Position numbers and translations under genes: made by a program
Notes under the pieces: generated by a model
What the model was told of the DNA's origin: nothing
Database searches by the model: none
Seen by the model: only the letters and a program-made list of their open reading frames with translations
DNA from: Promethearchaeota archaeon
Lineage (GTDB): Archaea; Asgardarchaeota; Lokiarchaeia; Sigyniarchaeales; SOKP01
Length of the DNA: 19,331 nt
Assembly: GCA_048938445.1 (NCBI GenBank)
Contig: JBHLME010000085.1
Span: forward strand, 1 to 19,331
Direction of reading: 5' to 3'
Shown: piece by piece, positions 1,408 through 10,217 of the stretch
How the letters are laid out: every line of letters starts with the position of its first letter
Numbering within the stretch: position 1 is the first letter of the stretch

Positions 1408-1464
1408 ATGGCACCTGAAAATAATAGTTTCTGGCGTTGGCAGTGGCCTTGGCGTTGGCAATAA
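1408..1464 (+). CDS. trpL: Putative trp operon leader peptide MAPENNSFWRWQWPWRWQ
   Basis: ATG GCA CCT GAA AAT AAT AGT TTC TGG CGT TGG CAG TGG CCT TGG CGT TGG CAA TAA. Five TGG codons among the last 10 sense codons, in a GC-rich patch within AT-rich intergenic DNA, directly upstream of and co-oriented with the trp operon. Confidence 0.85.
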   Translation: MAPENNSFWRWQWPWRWQ

Positions 1465-1490
1465 CGCCCTTATCATTGGTTCAAATCATA

Positions 1491-1552
1491 TTTTAATGCG
1501 CTCACTTTTCTACGCTTTTATTAAATTTTAAAACATTATTGTTATAGCTTTT
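1491..1552 (+). terminator. Candidate U-tract (archaeal-type) conditional terminator after the leader peptide
   Basis: TTTT runs at 1491, 1506, 1516, 1526 and 1549 in a pyrimidine-rich stretch (CTCACTTTTCTACGCTTTTATT). No classic GC hairpin immediately followed by a long U run. Confidence 0.4.
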
Positions 1553-1639
1553 AGATGTGCGTTATTAATATTGAATTCCAATAATTAAACGATACACATC
1601 AACAATGTGATGTAATAATAGAAAAAAATTATAAATGGA

Positions 1640-1912
1640 ATGAAGAAAATGTTAAAGGAAAAATTAAAGAATGATAAAATTAATAATATAATTGCAAATC
1701 ATAGGGAGAAAACACAATATATGAAAAAAGAACAGAATTCAGTTCGAAATTTTATATTTTCTGAGATGATAAGACTTATTAATAATAAAGACAAATTCAT
1801 GTTAGGGCCTGAAAAAACTAAAGCTGCAAGTTTTATTGCAGATAATTATCTTGATGTATATAAATATCTTAATAATCTATTAAAAAATAATATTTTTGAG
1901 GGATTAGATTAA
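1640..1912 (+). CDS. Hypothetical 90-aa basic protein, first gene of the trp operon
   Basis: Open ORF whose TAA (1910-1912) directly abuts the trpD ATG (1913). No family recognised. Confidence 0.7.
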   Translation: MKKMLKEKLKNDKINNIIANHREKTQYMKKEQNSVRNFIFSEMIRLINNKDKFMLGPEKTKAASFIADNYLDVYKYLNNLLKNNIFEGLD

Positions 1913-2968
1913 ATGTCTGAAGAAATTATTGTAAAAGGATTAAAAAAAATAACAAATAGGAAAAACTTAACAGTTCAAGAAGCAGAAAGTATAATGAGAG
2001 AAATCATGTCTGGAAATGTAAACGACTCTCAATTAGGAGCCCTATTAACTGCATTAAGCATGAAAGGGGAGTCAATCGAGGAAATCACCGGTTTTGCTAG
2101 GATAATGAGGGAATTTTCAAACAGAATTAAACCAAATGTCCAAGGAGAATTATTAGACACGTGCGGAACGGGTGGAGATATAATTAAAACTTTTAATATC
2201 AGTACCTTATCAGCATTAGTAGTTGCAGGAGCAGGAATCCCCGTAGCAAAACATGGAAATAGAGCTGTTACTAGTAAATGTGGAAGTGCTGACATTTTGG
2301 AAGGATTGGGCGTTAAAATAGATTTACCCCCTGAAGATGTTAAAAAATGTATAGAACAAGTAGGAATAGGATTCATGTTTGCACCACTTTTTCATCCTGC
2401 AATGAAGTATGCGATGCCTACGAGAAGGGCATTAAAATTAAGAACTGTCTTCAACATTCTTGGGCCATTAACCAACCCAGCATCTGCACGTTGCCATACT
2501 TTGGGTGTATTTCAGAAGGATTTGGCTCCTGTGATGGCAAAAGTGTTAAATGGTTTAGAAGCAAAACACGTATATACAGTTCATAATTCATGTGGTATAG
2601 ATGAAGTTGCCCCAGTAGGGATTAATTACATTACAGAGGTAATTAATGGCAATATCGAATCTTATGCGCTGACTAATGAGGATTTTGGTGTTCCAAATTG
2701 CGTGGTGGATGATATACTTTCAGGGAATTTAGACGATAATCTCAAAATCGCCATAGATATCCTAAAGAACAATAAAAAAGATGCTAAATATAATACTGTT
2801 TTGATGAATGCTTCACTTGCATTAAATTCCGTAAATAAGGCGAATAATTTTAAGGAAGGTATTGAAATAGCTAAAAATTCTATAGAATCAGGAAATGCAT
2901 TTAAAAAACTTTTACAATTTATTGAAGTCTCGGGTGGAAATTCAGAAAAATTGAATAATTTACTATAA
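1913..2968 (+). CDS. trpD: Anthranilate phosphoribosyltransferase
   Basis: Motifs DTCGTGGD, TFNIST, VAKHGNRAVTSKCGSAD, FHPAMK, RTVFNILGPLTNP, GIDE. Confidence 0.98.
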   Translation: MSEEIIVKGLKKITNRKNLTVQEAESIMREIMSGNVNDSQLGALLTALSMKGESIEEITGFARIMREFSNRIKPNVQGELLDTCGTGGDIIKTFNISTLSALVVAGAGIPVAKHGNRAVTSKCGSADILEGLGVKIDLPPEDVKKCIEQVGIGFMFAPLFHPAMKYAMPTRRALKLRTVFNILGPLTNPASARCHTLGVFQKDLAPVMAKVLNGLEAKHVYTVHNSCGIDEVAPVGINYITEVINGNIESYALTNEDFGVPNCVVDDILSGNLDDNLKIAIDILKNNKKDAKYNTVLMNASLALNSVNKANNFKEGIEIAKNSIESGNAFKKLLQFIEVSGGNSEKLNNLL

Positions 2969-2976
2969 TTAAAGAA

Positions 2977-3783
2977 ATGGTTTTCATGGTTTCAAATAAA
3001 ATAAAAGAAATAGTAGAAAAAAGAAGAAAGTCATTGGAAATCGATAAGAATTTAATAAATAGTTTAAATGATATTAATCTTAATAAAAATCGAACACCTT
3101 TAAGTGAAAAAATTAAAAATAATCTTGATATTTCTATAATTTCTGAAATTAAACCTTCTTCACCTACTCTGGGGGAAATTCGAAATGATATTGATGTAAA
3201 GAAGACTGCAATTGAAATGCAAGATGCAGGAGTAGTAGGTCTTAGTATTCTAACTGAACCAAATTATTTCAATGGTAGTTATGATAACCTCCGGTTAGCA
3301 GTTGAAAATACAAATCTGCCCTGTTTAATGAAAGATTTTGTCATTGACGAGATACAATTTAAAATCGCACGTCAAATAGGAGCCACAAATATATTATTAA
3401 TAAATTCCATTGTGGATCTACCTAAATTTTATTCATTAAGTCAAAATTATGATCTTGAACCTCTTATAGAAATTCATGATGCAGAAGAAATAAAAGATAT
3501 AAGAGGATTATTAGAAGTTGGTTTTAAACCAAAATTATTGGGTGTAAATAATAGAAACCTAAAGACCTTAGAAATTGATTTGAATACTTCAAGACAGATC
3601 ATTCCAAAATTAAAGGAAGAATTTGGAGAAAAGCTACAAGTCGTTAGCGAAAGTGGTATAAATTCCAAGGATGAGATTACTTTCGTTCAACCTAGTGGTG
3701 CTGATGCTTTTTTAATTGGCTCTTCAATAATGAAATCAAATAATATCAAAGAAAAGATCTTGGAGTTGCGGGGGATAAAATAA
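2977..3783 (+). CDS. trpC: Indole-3-glycerol phosphate synthase
   Basis: Motifs ISEIKPSSPT, SILTEPNYFNGS, LMKDF, LIEIH, GVNNRNLKT, VSESGI, FLIGSSIM. Alternative start at 2986. Confidence 0.97.
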   Translation: MVFMVSNKIKEIVEKRRKSLEIDKNLINSLNDINLNKNRTPLSEKIKNNLDISIISEIKPSSPTLGEIRNDIDVKKTAIEMQDAGVVGLSILTEPNYFNGSYDNLRLAVENTNLPCLMKDFVIDEIQFKIARQIGATNILLINSIVDLPKFYSLSQNYDLEPLIEIHDAEEIKDIRGLLEVGFKPKLLGVNNRNLKTLEIDLNTSRQIIPKLKEEFGEKLQVVSESGINSKDEITFVQPSGADAFLIGSSIMKSNNIKEKILELRGIK

Positions 3784-4439
3784 TGGAATACGTGAAGATA
3801 TGTGGGTTAAAAAAACACGAGCATGTGCAACTTTGCATTAATAATGGTGCAGATGCCATTGGTTTCATCTATAATGTTCCTACATCTCCAAGAAACATGT
3901 TAAAACATGAAATAAAAGATTTGTTAGAACAAATTAAGAACAAGATATTAACAGTAATAGTTCTTAAACCATCTAACTTAGTTGAATTAGAAAAAACCAT
4001 GAATGATTTCAATCCTTCCTACTTCCAGATTCATTGTGATTTCAATCTTCAAGAGTTAAAGAAACTTGATCTCAAGGAGAGAAGAAAGCTAATTGTCGCA
4101 TTAAAAGTAAATCATGAGAATAAAGAATCTATAATAAGACTAATCGAACAAAATCACGACCAGTTTTTCGCTTTCTTGATAGATAATAGTGAAGGACATG
4201 GGAATGTATTAAATATTGATTTTTTAGGGGATGTATTGAAAAAAACTAGTGGAACTAATTTAATTGTTGCTGGTGGAATCACCATAGAAAATATAGAAAA
4301 TATTATGAAGGTTTTAAAACCGTTTGGAATTGATGTCAGCAGTTCCTTAGAATCTGAAAAAGGAGTTAAAGATTCTTCAAAAATAATAGAATTTTTAAAT
4401 AAAGTTAGAGAAATAAGGAAAAAAATGAGAATGAATTAG
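3783..4439 (+). CDS. trpF: Phosphoribosylanthranilate isomerase
   Basis: Motifs [42 protein letters not shown] overlap with trpC. Confidence 0.95.
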
Positions 4440-4441
4440 AA

Positions 4442-5644
4442 ATGGATTATATTGACAAATACCCTGATAAATTAGGAAAGTTTGGAGAATTTGGAGGCAT
4501 GTTCGCTCCTGAAATTCTAATGCCCGCTCTTAACGAACTCACTGAAGCATATGAAAAATACATGAGTGATGAGAGTTTCATTGGGGAATTTACTCAAATT
4601 CTTGAAAATTATAGTGGAAGACCAACACCATTATATTTTGCTGAAAGATATAGTAAATATATTGGATGCAAGGTTTACTTAAAACGAGAAGATTTAAATC
4701 ATGGGGGTGCCCATAAAATTAATAATGTCATGGGACAAGCACTTCTAGCTAAAAAGATGGGTAAAACGAAACTTGTTGCCGAAACTGGAGCAGGGCAGCA
4801 TGGATTTGCTACTGCCATTGCTGGAGCTTATTTTGGCATGCCTACTAAAGTATTCATGGGGGAAATTGATATAAAACGTCAAGCTTACAATGTTTATAGA
4901 ATGCAAATTCTTGGCGCAGAAGTGATTCCCGTTAAATCAGGATCTAGGACATTAAAAGACGCCGTAAATGATGGGCTTAGATATTGGATTGCTAACTTAC
5001 ATGACACACATTATTTGATGGGAAGCGTGGTTGGACCACATCCTTATCCCTTAATAGTGAGGGAATTTCAGAGAGTTATTGGTAAGGAATTAAAAGGACA
5101 AATATTAAAGTTAGAAAAAAGGCTCCCAAATGCAATAATTGCATGTATTGGGGGAGGAAGCAATGCAATTGGCGCTTTTTATGACTTTATTAATAATATA
5201 GATGTTCAATTGATCGGTGTGGAAGCGGCTGGAGAAGGTAAAGACACAGATAAGCACTCTATAGCATTGGGATTAGGTCGTAAAGGAGTGTTACATGGTG
5301 CAATGCAATTTCTCCTACAAAATGAATATGGTAATATCAGTGAAACTCATTCAATAAGTGCGGGTCTAGATTACCCCGGAGTAGGTCCAGAGCATTGTTA
5401 TTTAAAAGAATTAAATCGATTGAGAGTTGGTGAAGCGACTGATCAAGAAACTTTAGAGGCATTTCAGAGATTATCTGAGTTAGAAGGAATAATTCCTGCA
5501 CTGGAAAGTTCTCACGCTTTAGCATATTTAGAAAAAATTAAAAATGAGTTCAATAACAACGATATCGTTGTAATTAATCTTTCTGGATCAGGTTCAAAAG
5601 ATCTTGATATAATTAAAGAACACGTGGAGTTTAAGATAAAATGA
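4442..5644 (+). CDS. trpB: Tryptophan synthase beta chain (TrpB1 type)
   Basis: Motifs [32 protein letters not shown] (PLP lysine), [42 protein letters not shown]. Confidence 0.99.
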
Positions 5645-5675: not shown

Positions 5676-6518
5676 ATGGAAACTGAATCAAACAGACTTA
5701 TAAAATTATTTTCTGATGAGAATCGAAAAAATGAGAAGTTCTTCATGCCTTTCCTAGTTGCTGGAGATCCTAGTATAGATGAATTTAAGAATCTAGTAGA
5801 AAAAATTGAACCTTACGCTGATATACTTGAGATTGGAGTGCCCTTTAGTGACCCAATTGCGGATGGTCCAACAATACAGGAAGCTAACGTGAGAGCTTTC
5901 AGTGCTGGTATTAATACTTCAGTTGCCTTGGATGCGATCAGAGATATCCGTGCCAAAACAGAAAAACCAATCGTGATTCTAACATATTATAACATTTTAA
6001 TTCAAGGAGCAGATACGATTGAAGAATCTCTTGATATTACTTTTAAGAGATTAAAAGTAAGCGGCGTTGATGGTATCGTTGTTGGAGATCTACCCGTAGA
6101 AGAAGCGGGATTAGCATTAACCGCATGTGAAAAGCACGATATATGCTTAATCTTTTTGATTGCCCCCTCTACAACACCAGATAGATTAACGAAAATATTA
6201 AAGGTAGCAAGAGGTTTTATTTATCTCATATCAGTCATGGGAGTTACAGGAACGCGAACCACGGTGGCTCAAATTACTAAAGATACGATAAATAAGATAT
6301 TAGATAAAACTGAAAATATGATTCCCGTTTTAGTAGGTTTTGGGATTTCACAACCCGAGCATGCGAAAATGATTGTCGATGAGGGTGCTGATGGTGTCAT
6401 AATAGGCTCCGCAATGGTTAAAATCATCAAAGAAAATTTGAGTGATTTTAAAAAAATGGAAACTGAAATGGTCGAGTTCGTTTCTAGTATAAAAAATGCT
6501 ATAAAGAGGCCGATTTAA
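5676..6518 (+). CDS. trpA: Tryptophan synthase alpha chain
   Basis: Motifs AGDP, LEIGVPFSDPIADGPTIQ, LTYYN, DLPVEE, GVTG, VGFGIS, DGVIIGSA. GGTGA RBS upstream. Confidence 0.98.
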   Translation: METESNRLIKLFSDENRKNEKFFMPFLVAGDPSIDEFKNLVEKIEPYADILEIGVPFSDPIADGPTIQEANVRAFSAGINTSVALDAIRDIRAKTEKPIVILTYYNILIQGADTIEESLDITFKRLKVSGVDGIVVGDLPVEEAGLALTACEKHDICLIFLIAPSTTPDRLTKILKVARGFIYLISVMGVTGTRTTVAQITKDTINKILDKTENMIPVLVGFGISQPEHAKMIVDEGADGVIIGSAMVKIIKENLSDFKKMETEMVEFVSSIKNAIKRPI

Positions 6519-6519
6519 T

Positions 6520-7137
6520 TTGACTGCTCAAGAACCAGATAGATTTTATTATCAAGATCAGAGATTAGATCTTGTTGGAATCAAAGGCAATGATCTAACT
6601 GTTCCTTTTGATTTTGGAATTGAAACTTATAGCCGTTCCACAAATTGTTGGAGAGGATATGTAATGCGATATAAAATTATTGGAAAACAATTAGTCTTGG
6701 ATGGTTTTTGGTTTAATTCAAAAAACAACGATCTCCCTAAAATCAATGGGATAAAACCCAATAAACTAGAAAAACCTAAGCCAGAATCGGGAAATTGGAT
6801 GCATCACTTATTTGAATTTGAATATAATGAACTAAATAAGAAAATACAATTCACTGGGAGCATCTGGTTAGCAAAAGATTTTATAGATTCTGAGTATGTT
6901 CACATGGGTTTTCAGAGTCCAACAGCATATAAAACTGTCTTAAAATTTGATTTTAAAGAGGGAGTAATTGTAAATGTAGAAGACAAATCTAAGGCTGTTG
7001 AAATCGCCAGAGAGAAAGGTGCTTGTAAGGAGCCTCAACCAAAATCAATGGATTCCAGAGATATTGAAGAGTGGATCATGAAACGCTTCTCGTTGGATAT
7101 AGATTATTTTAAAAATCAAAGTAATGATGAAAAATGA
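6520..7137 (+). CDS. Conserved hypothetical protein (TAQxPD...STxCWRGY type)
   Basis: TTG start 1 nt after the trpA stop, with AAGAGG upstream. N-terminal MTAQEPD and STNCWRGY resemble a family of uncharacterised prokaryotic proteins; function unknown. Confidence 0.85.
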   Translation: MTAQEPDRFYYQDQRLDLVGIKGNDLTVPFDFGIETYSRSTNCWRGYVMRYKIIGKQLVLDGFWFNSKNNDLPKINGIKPNKLEKPKPESGNWMHHLFEFEYNELNKKIQFTGSIWLAKDFIDSEYVHMGFQSPTAYKTVLKFDFKEGVIVNVEDKSKAVEIAREKGACKEPQPKSMDSRDIEEWIMKRFSLDIDYFKNQSNDEK

Positions 7138-8111
7138 TTGAATATAATGGAATTAAAATAGAATTAACAGAAATCGACAATTATAGGGGTTTTAATCTTT
7201 CTAATAAAGGTTTAAAAAGCTTGAATGAAGTTTTAGGTTTAGAAGGTGAAATTGAAGTTGAATATCTTGATATTTCTTATAACGAGCTGACTTCCCTTTC
7301 TGATGTAATTTTCACCTTACCTAATTTAAAGGTACTTTATGCGAGAGAAAATAAAATATCTAACATTCCAGAATCGATAGGTAATATAAATTCTCTTGAA
7401 TTTATCGAGTTGAGAGAAAATCGATTGAGAACTCTCCCAGAATCCATCGGAGAGCTTAGAAACCTAGATTCTCTCCTTTTGGACGGAAATCCCCTGGAAA
7501 ATCTTCCAGAATCACTTGGAAATCTTATTTCGCTGGAAACTCTGGGATTATTTGATACGAAATTGGAATATTTTCCAGAATCGATGAAAAAATTACCTCA
7601 ATTTCATTTAGATTTCAGTAATCCTTTTCTGACTAGATTTCCCCAGAGTATATTAAATATTAAAAACCTTATAGGGTTGAGTTTAGTGGAAAGTAATTTA
7701 GCATTTATTCCCGAAAATATTGATATCTTAAAGGACCTTAATTTTCTCAGCCTTAAGAATAATCAATTAAATTCATTACCCGAAACAATAGGAAATATAA
7801 GTTCACTATATTATCTAGAAATCGCAAAAAATAAGTTAACTTCATTACCAGAATCCATAGGTAACCTAACCTCACTTAAAATTCTTGATGTGATGGACAA
7901 TGAACTTACAACCCTCCCAGTTTCAATTGGAAATCTCAAGTCTCTCAAAAGGTTATATTTGCATTCGAATAGGATCTCAAGCATTCCAAAATCTATCCTT
8001 AATCTTGATTCCCTGGAAGACTTGGAGTTAACCAATAATCCAATTATGAATGAGAAAAATAATCCAATTATTGAAAAATTAAAAGAAAGAAATGTATTAA
8101 TTAATAACTAA
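7134..8111 (+). CDS. Leucine-rich repeat protein
   Basis: About 12 repeats of mostly 23 aa, consensus LxxLxLxxNxLxxLPESIGNLxS. ATGA overlap with the upstream gene. No signal peptide or other domain evident. Confidence 0.95.
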   Translation: MIEYNGIKIELTEIDNYRGFNLSNKGLKSLNEVLGLEGEIEVEYLDISYNELTSLSDVIFTLPNLKVLYARENKISNIPESIGNINSLEFIELRENRLRTLPESIGELRNLDSLLLDGNPLENLPESLGNLISLETLGLFDTKLEYFPESMKKLPQFHLDFSNPFLTRFPQSILNIKNLIGLSLVESNLAFIPENIDILKDLNFLSLKNNQLNSLPETIGNISSLYYLEIAKNKLTSLPESIGNLTSLKILDVMDNELTTLPVSIGNLKSLKRLYLHSNRISSIPKSILNLDSLEDLELTNNPIMNEKNNPIIEKLKERNVLINN

Positions 8112-8130: not shown

Positions 8131-9627
8131 ATGGAATTTGACATACATATTGAAAAAATTGGAGAGCTGGATGACATATTCGGCTTTTATAAGTATTTAG
8201 TAAAAAAATATGACTTGAAAAAGCATGCACTATTAGAATCAGCTTCAGAGAATACAAAAGAAACATTATATAGTTTTATTGCTCTGGATCCAGATTTCAT
8301 GTTAGAAATTAATGAAGAAAAATTTAAAATCTACGATATCACTACTGCCAGAGGTGAAAATATCAAGGAGTATGTCGAATCTAAAGACCCTGCTGAGGAA
8401 AGACCCCATAATCCATTACCTTTTAAGGATAACGTGGACTATAACATGGTTGCTCTAGACACTCTTAGCCATCTCACGCCTTATTCGAACCTTCCTTTCA
8501 CGGAATTATTTCCAAGAAATATATTTTATGGGGGAATGCTTGGCTATATTGGATATGATGTAGTGGCACCATATGTAGGATATAAATCCACAAGCGAGTT
8601 TCCCGATGTTCTCATGGCACTCTATACAAAAGTTTTAGTCTATTCTCATAGCTCGAATGCATTATTTATGATCGATAACAGCATTGATGACTATTCAAAA
8701 GATAAAGATATTCGTTATCAACTGAGCCTATTTAATAGAAATAATAAAAATAATGGAATGAAAGACATTCCTCTTGATATCGAAGAAGTAGATGAATCAA
8801 GTTTTAGATCTAATACTTCTAAATCCGCTCATGAACGGATGGTTGAGAAAACTAAAGAACATATTTATGCAGGTGATATAATACAAGCGGTTATTTCCCG
8901 AAGGCTATATACGGAGAGTAAAATAGACCCAATGCAGATATATGAGGTGTTAAGGACGCTTAATCCTTCCCAATACATGTATAATTTGAATTTTGATAAG
9001 ATAAAAATCATTGGTAGCAGCCCAGAAGCATTGATTTCTAAGAATAAGGATGTTCTAAATACAGTTCCAATTGCAGGAACCATACGACGAGGGAAGACTG
9101 CCGAAGAAGATTTTAAATTGGAACAAGAATTACTTAGCGATCCCAAGGAACAAGCGGAACACATCATGTTGGTCGATTTAGCGAGAAATGATCTTGCTAA
9201 AGTCTCATATCCTGGCTCTGTTGAGACTTATGAACTCATGGTAGTTCAAAAATATCAAAAAGTCCAGCATATAGTAAGTAAAGTGAGAAGCAGAACTCCT
9301 TTAGATGGATATCAGGTGTTAAAAAGCGTTTTTCCTGCCGGAACTCTGTCTGGAGCACCTAAAAAACGCGCAATGGAAATAATTCAGGATTTAGAAACAG
9401 AAAGTCGTGGTCCTTATGGCGGAGGCGTTGGATATTTTTCATTTAATGGAGACATGGCTTTTGCCATCGCAATAAGAACTTTATTTGGAAGGAATGGTAA
9501 TTATTATGCTCAAGCGGGAGGAGGAATAGTTGCTGATAGCCAGCCCCACGAGGAATATATAGAAACTTATAACAAATTATATAGCGTCTTAAAATCAATC
9601 AAAATTGCAGAGGCGAGAGAAAAATGA
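8131..9627 (+). CDS. trpE: Anthranilate synthase component I
   Basis: Motifs LLES, GGMLGYIGYD, GDIIQAVISRR, NPSQYM, GSSPE, PIAGT (anthranilate synthase type; PabB has PIKGT), EHIMLVDLARND, PAGTLSGAPK, RGPYGG, AGGGIVADS. Confidence 0.96.
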   Translation: MEFDIHIEKIGELDDIFGFYKYLVKKYDLKKHALLESASENTKETLYSFIALDPDFMLEINEEKFKIYDITTARGENIKEYVESKDPAEERPHNPLPFKDNVDYNMVALDTLSHLTPYSNLPFTELFPRNIFYGGMLGYIGYDVVAPYVGYKSTSEFPDVLMALYTKVLVYSHSSNALFMIDNSIDDYSKDKDIRYQLSLFNRNNKNNGMKDIPLDIEEVDESSFRSNTSKSAHERMVEKTKEHIYAGDIIQAVISRRLYTESKIDPMQIYEVLRTLNPSQYMYNLNFDKIKIIGSSPEALISKNKDVLNTVPIAGTIRRGKTAEEDFKLEQELLSDPKEQAEHIMLVDLARNDLAKVSYPGSVETYELMVVQKYQKVQHIVSKVRSRTPLDGYQVLKSVFPAGTLSGAPKKRAMEIIQDLETESRGPYGGGVGYFSFNGDMAFAIAIRTLFGRNGNYYAQAGGGIVADSQPHEEYIETYNKLYSVLKSIKIAEAREK

Positions 9628-10217
9628 AAATCCTATTTATCAATAATTATGACAGTTTTGTCTATAATCTTGTTAATTACATCTGCCAATTACAACCTGA
9701 TGCGGAAATTATTGTCGAAGATAACCATATTGCTGTGGATAAAGTTAAAGAAATGAATGTTGACAAGATAATTATTTCTCCCGGTCCAGGACATCCAAAA
9801 TATGACACGGGTACAGTGATTCCAATAATCAAGGAGTTCTACTCAAAAGTTCCCATATTAGGTATCTGTTTAGGTCATCAAGCGATCGTGGAAGCCATTG
9901 GTGAAGATGAACAAGTTGAATACGTTAGTCGTGCTAAAGTAGGGCCCATGCATGGAAAGGAATCTAAGATATTTCATGATCAGGAAACTATATTTAAGGA
10001 CATTCCTAATCCATTACAAGTGATAAGATATCATTCATTAGCAGCGAAAGGTGATATTCTTCCTAAAGATCTTAAAATAACTGCAACTGCAGATGATGGT
10101 ACGATAATGGCCATACGCCATAAAAAATTTCCTATTGAAGGTGTTCAATTTCACCCAGAATCTATAAAAATGAAACCTGATGGAATGAAGATATTGAAGA
10201 ATTTCTTAGAATTATAG
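9624..10217 (+). CDS. trpG: Anthranilate synthase component II (class I glutamine amidotransferase)
   Basis: Motifs NNYDSFVYNL, ISPGPGHP, GICLGHQ, RYHSL, GVQFHPES. ATGA overlap with trpE. Confidence 0.97.
   Translation: MKILFINNYDSFVYNLVNYICQLQPDAEIIVEDNHIAVDKVKEMNVDKIIISPGPGHPKYDTGTVIPIIKEFYSKVPILGICLGHQAIVEAIGEDEQVEYVSRAKVGPMHGKESKIFHDQETIFKDIPNPLQVIRYHSLAAKGDILPKDLKITATADDGTIMAIRHKKFPIEGVQFHPESIKMKPDGMKILKNFLEL

Follow-up and report, generated by a model that had tools for sequence, protein, structure and literature searches.

The 19,331-nucleotide (nt) contig of a Promethearchaeota archaeon analysed here in full (hereafter the window) carries a tryptophan (Trp) biosynthesis operon, preceded by a short open reading frame (ORF) at positions 1408-1464 in which Trp codons crowd towards the stop codon. 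We propose that this ORF is probably a ribosome-stalling Trp sensor controlling the trp operon. Leaders of the same kind precede trpD in other Asgard archaea, and parallel leaders rich in leucine (Leu), phenylalanine (Phe) or alanine, isoleucine and valine (Ala/Ile/Val) are found in front of other genes. Taken together, these sequence data suggest that Asgard archaea may sense amino-acid supply by means of a stalling ribosome. The step controlled by the Trp leader is assigned only tentatively to the termination of transcription. The elements of the leader and of its putative promoter are as follows.

1408-1464 (+), leader ORF encoding MAPENNSFWRWQWPWRWQ followed by the stop at 1462-1464; 18 codons, five of them Trp (ATG GCA CCT GAA AAT AAT AGT TTC TGG CGT TGG CAG TGG CCT TGG CGT TGG CAA TAA)
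1432-1458 (+), five in-frame TGG codons with 6-nt spacing, the proposed sensing codons
1354-1361 (+), TATA-like box TTTAAATA, candidate leader promoter by position and resemblance
1376-1383, second copy of the TATA-like box

All five Trp codons lie within the last ten codons of the ORF, which is co-oriented with the trp operon and separated by a 175-nt spacer from the first gene downstream, orf90 (start at 1640). An earlier note on this DNA had described an 18-codon, five-Trp ORF 175 nt before the operon, as well as a single Trp residue among the seven Trp enzymes; re-reading of the coordinates and translation confirmed the former, and protein counts the latter. That one residue sits in TrpB, and the Trp content of eight other ORFs of the window is 0-3.6%. 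Since the seven enzymes contain just one Trp, the operon should be translatable while the leader is stalling ribosomes. The window contains a single run of five TGG triplets at 6-nt spacing, and 0 of 200 dinucleotide-preserving shuffles produced one; four such triplets were found at 8 overlapping positions on 6 contigs of the 4.63-Mb genome. A scan of Met-started short ORFs in uncovered DNA of the whole genome returned 1408-1464 as the sole Trp-cluster ORF with a W-x-W end, together with three further W-flagged ORFs in which Trp is scattered. Five other W-cluster segments that were inspected lie inside or against longer ORFs and have no co-oriented gene after them. The box at 1354-1361 may be the leader promoter, which would place the transcription start at about 1384-1388; many relatives, the GC-richer L024 among them, have an AT-rich TATA-like box about 40-60 nt 5' of their leader ATG.

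Trp-rich short ORFs upstream of trpD in related genomes, for which the earlier note proposed to look, were indeed present. A short ORF ending in a Trp cluster was found 144-506 nt 5' of trpD in 16/16 relatives of the same genus, family or order for which upstream DNA is available, and in 20 of the 21 Asgard-like TrpD loci of a named collection. This amounts to 28 distinct Asgard loci, which, being relatives, are not independent samples. The leader peptides are 16-40 amino acids (aa) long and contain 2-5 Trp, all within the last dozen or so codons, most commonly in the pattern W-x-W-x-W-R-(W)-x-stop; examples of their C-termini are MATENNCFWSWQWPWRWQ, ..TWFWAWRWHA, ..GWQWPWRFE and ..IAWSWRG. 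In most of the 28 leaders the stop comes 1-3 codons past the last TGG, and in 26/28 loci it lies 132-272 nt from the first gene (orf90 or trpD); the 33 nt of L037, one of two exceptions, reflect a spurious ORF call over a broken orf90. Only the Trp cluster with the following arginine (Arg) and stop are kept, the N-termini being unrelated and the lengths variable. As the Trp cluster is conserved while the N-terminus drifts, the pattern points to a codon-sensing leader rather than to a peptide with a function of its own.

Among 58 non-Asgard TrpD loci used as a control (methanogens, Bathyarchaeia, Omnitrophota and others), which is weak for bacteria because trpD is rarely the first gene there, a W-dense short ORF within 600 nt was seen in two; these two are mutually homologous and resemble out-of-frame coding sequence. 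The trpD-first operons of three further families (f8, f14 and f20/Borrarchaeum) are also preceded by Trp-rich short ORFs, with the ends ..RSWWWI, ..CGVFLWWF, ..TWFCWLFWYW and, in a Borrarchaeum record, ..LPWWHWF, each directly before the stop. At the trpE-first operons of other Asgard families no convincing Trp leader was recognized, the weak candidates being L131/L132, L141 and L151.

In one lineage, several of the leader TGG codons have been changed to TGT (cysteine, Cys), and the hairpin at the stop codon is retained; the leaders end in ..TWFCICCWHA (L008/L039 and L049) or ..AWFCCWRWHA (L048) before the stop. Such leaders may represent a weakened or retuned sensor. Trp synthesis itself appears to be patchy across the archaea of this phylum, a TrpD match (E <= 1e-40) having been obtained in 39/301 of its sampled genomes.

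A genome scan for other leaders, defined as Met-started short ORFs in uncovered DNA rich in one residue, revealed counterparts for other amino acids. A Leu-rich leader, ..SSLGLLLNLLGLLLLLL (ending ..LLGLLLLLL before the stop; contig C157:15957-16082 (+), locus L117:258-383), is followed after 95 nt by leuA, the gene for 2-isopropylmalate synthase. Of the 25 relatives for which upstream DNA is available, 19 have this leader, one is a doubtful case and five are without it; its distance from leuA is 83-116 nt in 18 of the 19 and 363 nt, across an assembly gap, in L169. The codons of the Leu runs are TTA (96), CTT (28), CTC (5), TTG (5) and CTA (2), and because five synonymous codons are in use it is the amino acid, and not an RNA word, that these leaders conserve. 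A Phe-rich leader, ..DLFFFKFFILPRE (contig C76:9322-9417 (+), locus L214:323-418), stands 200 nt before pheS-pheT-pheA, and such a leader occurs 133-226 nt 5' of pheS in 15 of the 18 family members whose upstream DNA is available; 7 loci of the other families show no clear Phe leader.

The Ala/Ile/Val-rich ORF MISSINNTRKNAIAVNAFARSIIAAAIAAVAAVLL is followed 169 nt downstream by a class IV (branched-chain) aminotransferase gene, and this leader recurs in 6 relatives having the same paralogue. A family of Ala/Ile/Val/Leu-rich short ORFs is located at C71:17141-17248 (-), C117:18788-18862 (-), C206:14462-14563 (+) and C141:32913-33002 (+). Its members share an N-terminal NNT.KN motif (the C206 ORF excepted) and C-terminal VLL or LLL directly before the stop, and they precede a branched-chain aminotransferase gene, an acyl-CoA dehydrogenase/electron-transfer flavoprotein (ETF) cluster and a methylmalonyl-CoA mutase gene. 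A histidine (His)-rich short ORF, MKFKRYHIHHIHHIH (C60:29420-29467 (-)), was dropped from consideration as it has no co-oriented gene downstream. The presence of parallel Leu, Phe and Ala/Ile/Val leaders in front of matching genes makes the leader-peptide interpretation much stronger. The suggestion in the earlier note that 1408-1464 is a TrpL-type sensor is thus supported, as far as sequence reaches, both by the conservation of the leader across Asgard families and by these parallel leaders.

The contig is Asgard archaeal, in agreement with the earlier assignment based on gene style. The genome of the window (4.63 Mb, 256 contigs) is 96.5% complete with 8.2% contamination; a search for a 16S rRNA gene in it found none. 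It encodes S3Ae, an archaeal ribosomal protein (179 bits; in the control search only the 4 archaea matched), and actin homologues with scores of up to 424 bits. TrpD orthologues of 45-80% identity are present in 17 of 40 genomes ranked as the same genus, family or order. The nearest TrpD loci in the named collection, with 63-85% identity, are mostly titled Promethearchaeota archaeon, which refers to a phylum within the kingdom Promethearchaeati, and a few are labelled Hodarchaeota, Odinarchaeota or 'uncultured archaeon'. The GC content of the contig, 31.5%, falls within the range of the genome, whose contigs of 5 kb or more have 29.4 +/- 1.7%. A contaminant contig is unlikely, because the same neighbours recur in bins from many assemblies. 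A look-up of sequencing runs listed 18 DNA-type entries and no RNA entry.

The RNA elements of the leader region are listed below; all RNA structures are predictions.

1451-1468 (+), hairpin P1: 5' arm GGCGTTG, loop GCAA, 3' arm TAACGCC with the stop codon
1387-1401 (+), 5' arm of helix P0, CATAAAATATGATTT, in the 5' untranslated region (UTR) of the leader; pairs with 1483-1495
1483-1495 (+), 3' arm of helix P0, AAATCATATTTTA, ending in the first U4 run
1491-1552 (+), U-rich stretch with T4 runs at 1491, 1506, 1516, 1526 and 1549; candidate archaeal termination zone
1557-1597 (+), distal hairpin P3 (GTGCGTTATTAATATTG / CAATAATTAAACGATACAC), a class A consensus hairpin; RNA element or palindromic operator

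Hairpin P1 pairs the codons Trp15-Arg16-Trp17 (1451-1457) with 1462-1468, and its consensus is retained in the class A alignments A1 and A2. In class B, different sequences (GCACGC/GCGTGC) with the stop in the loop occupy the place of P1, and the first Trp codons are the pairing partner of the 5' UTR. The P0 duplex reaches z-scores of -2 to -4.3 against shuffles in 12/28 loci, including the divergent sequences L015 and L016, and is weak in L008, L011, L012, L017, L048 and L049; on alignment A2 it is 88.8% paired, with many one-sided changes from A-U to G-U. For P0, P1 and P3 together, 87.2% of the cells of A2 (11 class A sequences) are paired, as compared with 36-57% when partners are slid. 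Two-sided changes on A2 are few (7 cells) because the aligned sequences are close. The leader segment 1385-1498 folds with -30.5 kcal/mol (z -2.83), and only 1 of 200 shuffles was as stable. Pairing of a conserved CATTGG with CCAAT in the P3 loop was considered and dropped, since inspection by eye showed that the changes seen in L014, L037 and L041/L042 are not compensatory. Constrained folding of 11 leaders gave no classical antiterminator/terminator switch, and no bacterial-type GC hairpin with a U run was found between the leader and the first gene.

The DNA past the leader stop is biased in composition. From +15 to +110 it is T-rich with runs of T4-T7; the 24 AT-rich loci mostly have 37-53% T versus 24-45% A, and the three loci above 40% GC have 28-29% T; the final 50 nt 5' of the first gene are A-rich. 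After the Trp leader stop there are 2.43 T4 runs and 1.14 A4 runs per 100 nt, compared with 1.82 and 1.87 in control upstream windows.

Hairpins also accompany the other leaders. In the Leu class, a strong covarying hairpin begins 1-6 nt past the stop, the minimum free energy over 70 nt being -10.7 to -27.9 kcal/mol versus -7.0 +/- 3.7 in 400 random short ORFs, and 19/20 of these hairpins fall under the 5th percentile of the control. In the Phe class, the final codons CCA AGG GAA (CCAAGGGAA) pair with TTCYCTTGG past the stop, and a run of U4-6 follows the hairpin in about 6/10 cases (U6 in the genome of the window). The Trp, Phe and Leu classes thus share a layout in which a hairpin spans or abuts the stop codon and the sensing codons fall within its 5' arm or precede that arm by about 15 nt at most. 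Because of this placement, a ribosome waiting at the sensing codons would hold the hairpin open.

On these grounds we envisage the Trp leader as a cis-acting peptide whose translation would report the supply of charged tRNA-Trp. With ample Trp, the ribosome would pass the five Trp codons, terminate at 1462-1464 and depart, after which the leader RNA could close, with P1 forming and the 5' UTR pairing with 1483-1495 (P0). Transcription of the closed leader would then end, or the transcript would be cut, within 1491-1552, leaving little operon product. When Trp is scarce, a ribosome stalled on the Trp codons, i.e. in the 5' arm of P1, would keep the fold open, and RNA polymerase would continue into orf90-trpDCFBA...EG. 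Early termination might be intrinsic or might proceed via aCPSF1/FttA. According to the accessible part of the review PMC13675443, aCPSF1/FttA recognises U4 tracts, a Lokiarchaeota aCPSF1 is functional in Methanococcus, and archaeal termination can be enhanced by hairpins. The design would be a two-state 'occlusion', unlike the four-segment design of E. coli. That a whole Promethearchaeota family of Trp, Leu, Phe and Ala/Ile/Val leaders couples stalling to read-through of a zone made of a stop-codon hairpin and U tracts is a fair possibility, although somewhat less likely than not.

Several observations weigh against this interpretation. The stop-spanning hairpin of the Trp leaders beats shuffles only modestly (mean z -1.04, with 7/28 below -2); at least 5 stop-spanning pairs are present in 24/28 leaders, yet also in 62.5% of 400 random short ORFs, which makes this measure a poor discriminator. 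Masking of a ribosome footprint, placed either on a Trp codon or on the stop, abolished only P1 in the 11 loci modelled and left the downstream fold as it was. As a ribosome at the stop codon also covers P1, fast release or a paused polymerase would be needed. The excess of T4 runs is modest (2.43, with 1.82 for control upstream windows and 2.12 for the 3' flanks of genes), and hairpins are not generally required for archaeal termination, as stated in the accessible part of PMC13675443. Only 2 Trp codons are present in L008, L013, L021, L022, L043 and L049. A separate promoter and operator could reside in the P3 palindrome and in the A-rich DNA of the last 50 nt 5' of the first gene. Some of the Val/Leu-rich ORFs precede catabolic-looking genes (acyl-CoA dehydrogenase/ETF, methylmalonyl-CoA mutase), for which induction by starvation is not an obvious logic. 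In the genome of the window, the regions upstream of hisG (contig C73) and ilvC have no cognate leader, and therefore the device is not universal. Given that no antiterminator was found, and given the modest statistics of the Trp hairpin and the dependence on timing, the regulated step is something that we infer.

The same Trp sensor might have another output, with the stalled ribosome controlling translation or stability of the message, e.g. through remodelling of P0/P3 or protection from cleavage. We regard this as unlikely, yet as the most serious of the alternatives. It would agree with the failure to find a terminator/antiterminator alternative, and with the hairpins after the Leu and Ala/Ile/Val leaders, which are often followed by U3-5 only or by no U run at all. 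Mycobacterial polycysteine short ORFs, described in the accessible part of 10.1101/834739 as cysteine-responsive attenuators of operon expression, would also be in line with such an output. On the other hand, 40-170 nt separate the hairpins from the start codon of the following gene, leaving that codon uncovered, and the T-over-A asymmetry past the Trp leader resembles a termination zone. It is less probable still that the leader is a separate short transcription unit and that the operon has its own promoter, with P3 (1557-1597) serving as the operator of a TrpY-like repressor. In favour of an operator, the palindrome of P3 is conserved in class A, class B has a related one, ATTAGAAATTCTAAT, at the same place, and A-rich DNA follows in both classes. 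No operator-like element other than P3 was seen. However, one P3 pair varies (UA 5, GC 3, UG 2), and a change between U-G and U-A or G-C fits an RNA better than a DNA half-site. A genome-wide search with the P3 motif gave only chance-level AT-rich matches and no regulon, and the GC-rich L022 has, by eye, no clear TATA box between leader and gene. A separate promoter would also leave unexplained why Trp, Leu and Phe ORFs are retained before matching genes.

Two further explanations seem to us very improbable. The UGG repeats (UGGCNN x5, with a 6-nt period) could be the site of a TRAP-like oligomeric RNA-binding protein, the ORF being incidental. TRAP of Bacillus is a protein that binds spaced triplets, and the strict 6-nt UGG period recalls them. 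Nevertheless, the TRAP family (TrpBP, PF02081) had 0 matches in this 96.5%-complete genome, in a search whose control found Bacillus subtilis, and the only candidate among the neighbours, orf90, is present in 5/41 genomes. Moreover, the UGGs belong to a reading frame that is open and has a start codon, with a closely following stop at most of the 28 loci, and the Leu leaders use synonymous codons and the Phe leaders share the layout. The ORF could instead encode a Trp-rich micropeptide acting in trans, as a signal, a membrane peptide or the precursor of a modified peptide. A bacterial precedent is the trp leader peptide peTrpL of Sinorhizobium, for which a function in trans is mentioned in the accessible part of PMC7298713. 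Here, though, conservation is limited to the Trp cluster and the hairpin-forming codons, with length and N-terminus varying; Trp is replaced by Cys in some lineages, and four different amino-acid-rich ORFs each precede genes for that amino acid.

The preferred reading, a ribosome-stalling Trp sensor, can be compared with well-studied systems, of which the bacterial trpL, pheM/pheL and leuL leaders come nearest to it in function. In the short trpL ORF of E. coli, Trp codons cluster towards the end and Arg comes next; these codons take part in the 1:2 hairpin, and the enzymes of the operon are poor in Trp. The leader of the window shares these traits: it lies upstream of a trp operon, its final codons include a Trp cluster with Arg after it, the Trp codons are predicted to pair with a segment past the stop in the manner of that 1:2 hairpin, and the Trp enzymes of the window contain little Trp. 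It differs from trpL in its archaeal host with a eukaryote-like RNA polymerase and in having five alternating Trp codons (W-x-W-x-W) in place of a tandem Trp pair. Neither a 2:3 antiterminator nor a 3:4 GC-hairpin terminator was found here; instead of the terminator of E. coli, there is a helix between the 5' UTR and the post-stop segment, and several U4 runs. Among the curated leaders of Rfam, neither Trp_leader nor any other matched, and a search of 1200-2000 of the window at E <= 10 gave two unrelated hits at chance level.

In E. coli, pheM/pheL and leuL encode the leader peptides for attenuation of pheST, pheA and the leu operon. The Phe- and Leu-rich ORFs before pheS-pheT-pheA and leuA resemble them, with the difference that the hairpin here directly spans or abuts the stop and has the sensing codons in or next to its 5' arm. 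Trp is also linked to read-through of leader transcription by TnaC, in the tna operon of E. coli, and by TRAP, in Bacillus. Unlike the leader of the window, TnaC detects free Trp through one conserved Trp residue and acts on a catabolic operon; the Trp leaders have 2-5 Trp codons and biosynthetic genes downstream. The best-described trp control in archaea is TrpY of Methanothermobacter thermautotrophicus, which differs in being a DNA-binding protein that acts at the promoter, with no leader ORF. The polycysteine short ORFs, as far as the accessible part of 10.1101/834739 describes them, share with the leader of the window the principle that an ORF rich in one residue senses that amino acid for the downstream operon, and differ in being bacterial, Cys-sensing and leaderless.

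Attenuation by a leader peptide is a textbook bacterial mechanism, in which the ribosome must closely follow RNA polymerase. We know of no case in Archaea, and no description of an archaeal leader-peptide attenuator was found in the full-text literature, the coverage of which leaves out subscription journals and supplements. If correct, the proposal of such a leader family would make Asgard archaea the first Archaea with transcription attenuation by leader peptides, and would be evidence that the closest prokaryotic relatives of eukaryotes depend on a tight coupling of transcription and translation. It would also show that this coupling is put to regulatory use and that attenuation logic exists alongside a eukaryote-like transcription machinery. 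RNA structure could then modulate termination by archaeal RNA polymerase or aCPSF1/FttA, and folding beside the stop codon could decide the fate of an archaeal transcript. The TGG codons, the ATG, P1, P0 and the U4 runs are mutable objects for tests of archaeal termination, and, with the layout of the leaders as a simple rule, regulation can be annotated in the genomes of uncultured Asgard archaea.

The genes downstream of the leader follow in the order orf90, trpD, trpC, trpF, trpB, trpA, a two-ORF insert, trpE and trpG.

1640-1912 (+), orf90, small all-helical protein between the leader and trpD
1913-2968 (+), trpD, anthranilate phosphoribosyltransferase (Pfam Glycos_transf_3, 295 bits)
2977-3783 (+), trpC (Pfam IGPS)
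3783-4439 (+), trpF (Pfam PRAI)
4442-5644 (+), trpB (Pfam PALP)
5676-6518 (+), trpA (Pfam Trp_syntA)
8131-9627 (+), trpE (Pfam Chorismate_bind)
9624-10217 (+), trpG (Pfam GATase)

The orf90 product has no Pfam match, and its AlphaFold model (predicted local distance difference test score, pLDDT, 75.9) has no fold match in PDB at E <= 0.001. The gene is present in 5/41 genomes, with that of the window (G000) counted, and in 4 of these 5 it lies between the leader and trpD; its conserved motif is GPEK..A.FIA, and the copy in L037 is interrupted by stops. A role of orf90 as a regulator was rejected in view of this narrow distribution and the lack of Pfam and PDB fold matches. Two ORFs are inserted between trpA and trpE of this Trp-poor operon: a 205-aa ORF without an assigned family (6520-7137, +), which contains 5 Trp, and an ORF encoding a leucine-rich-repeat protein (7134-8111, +).

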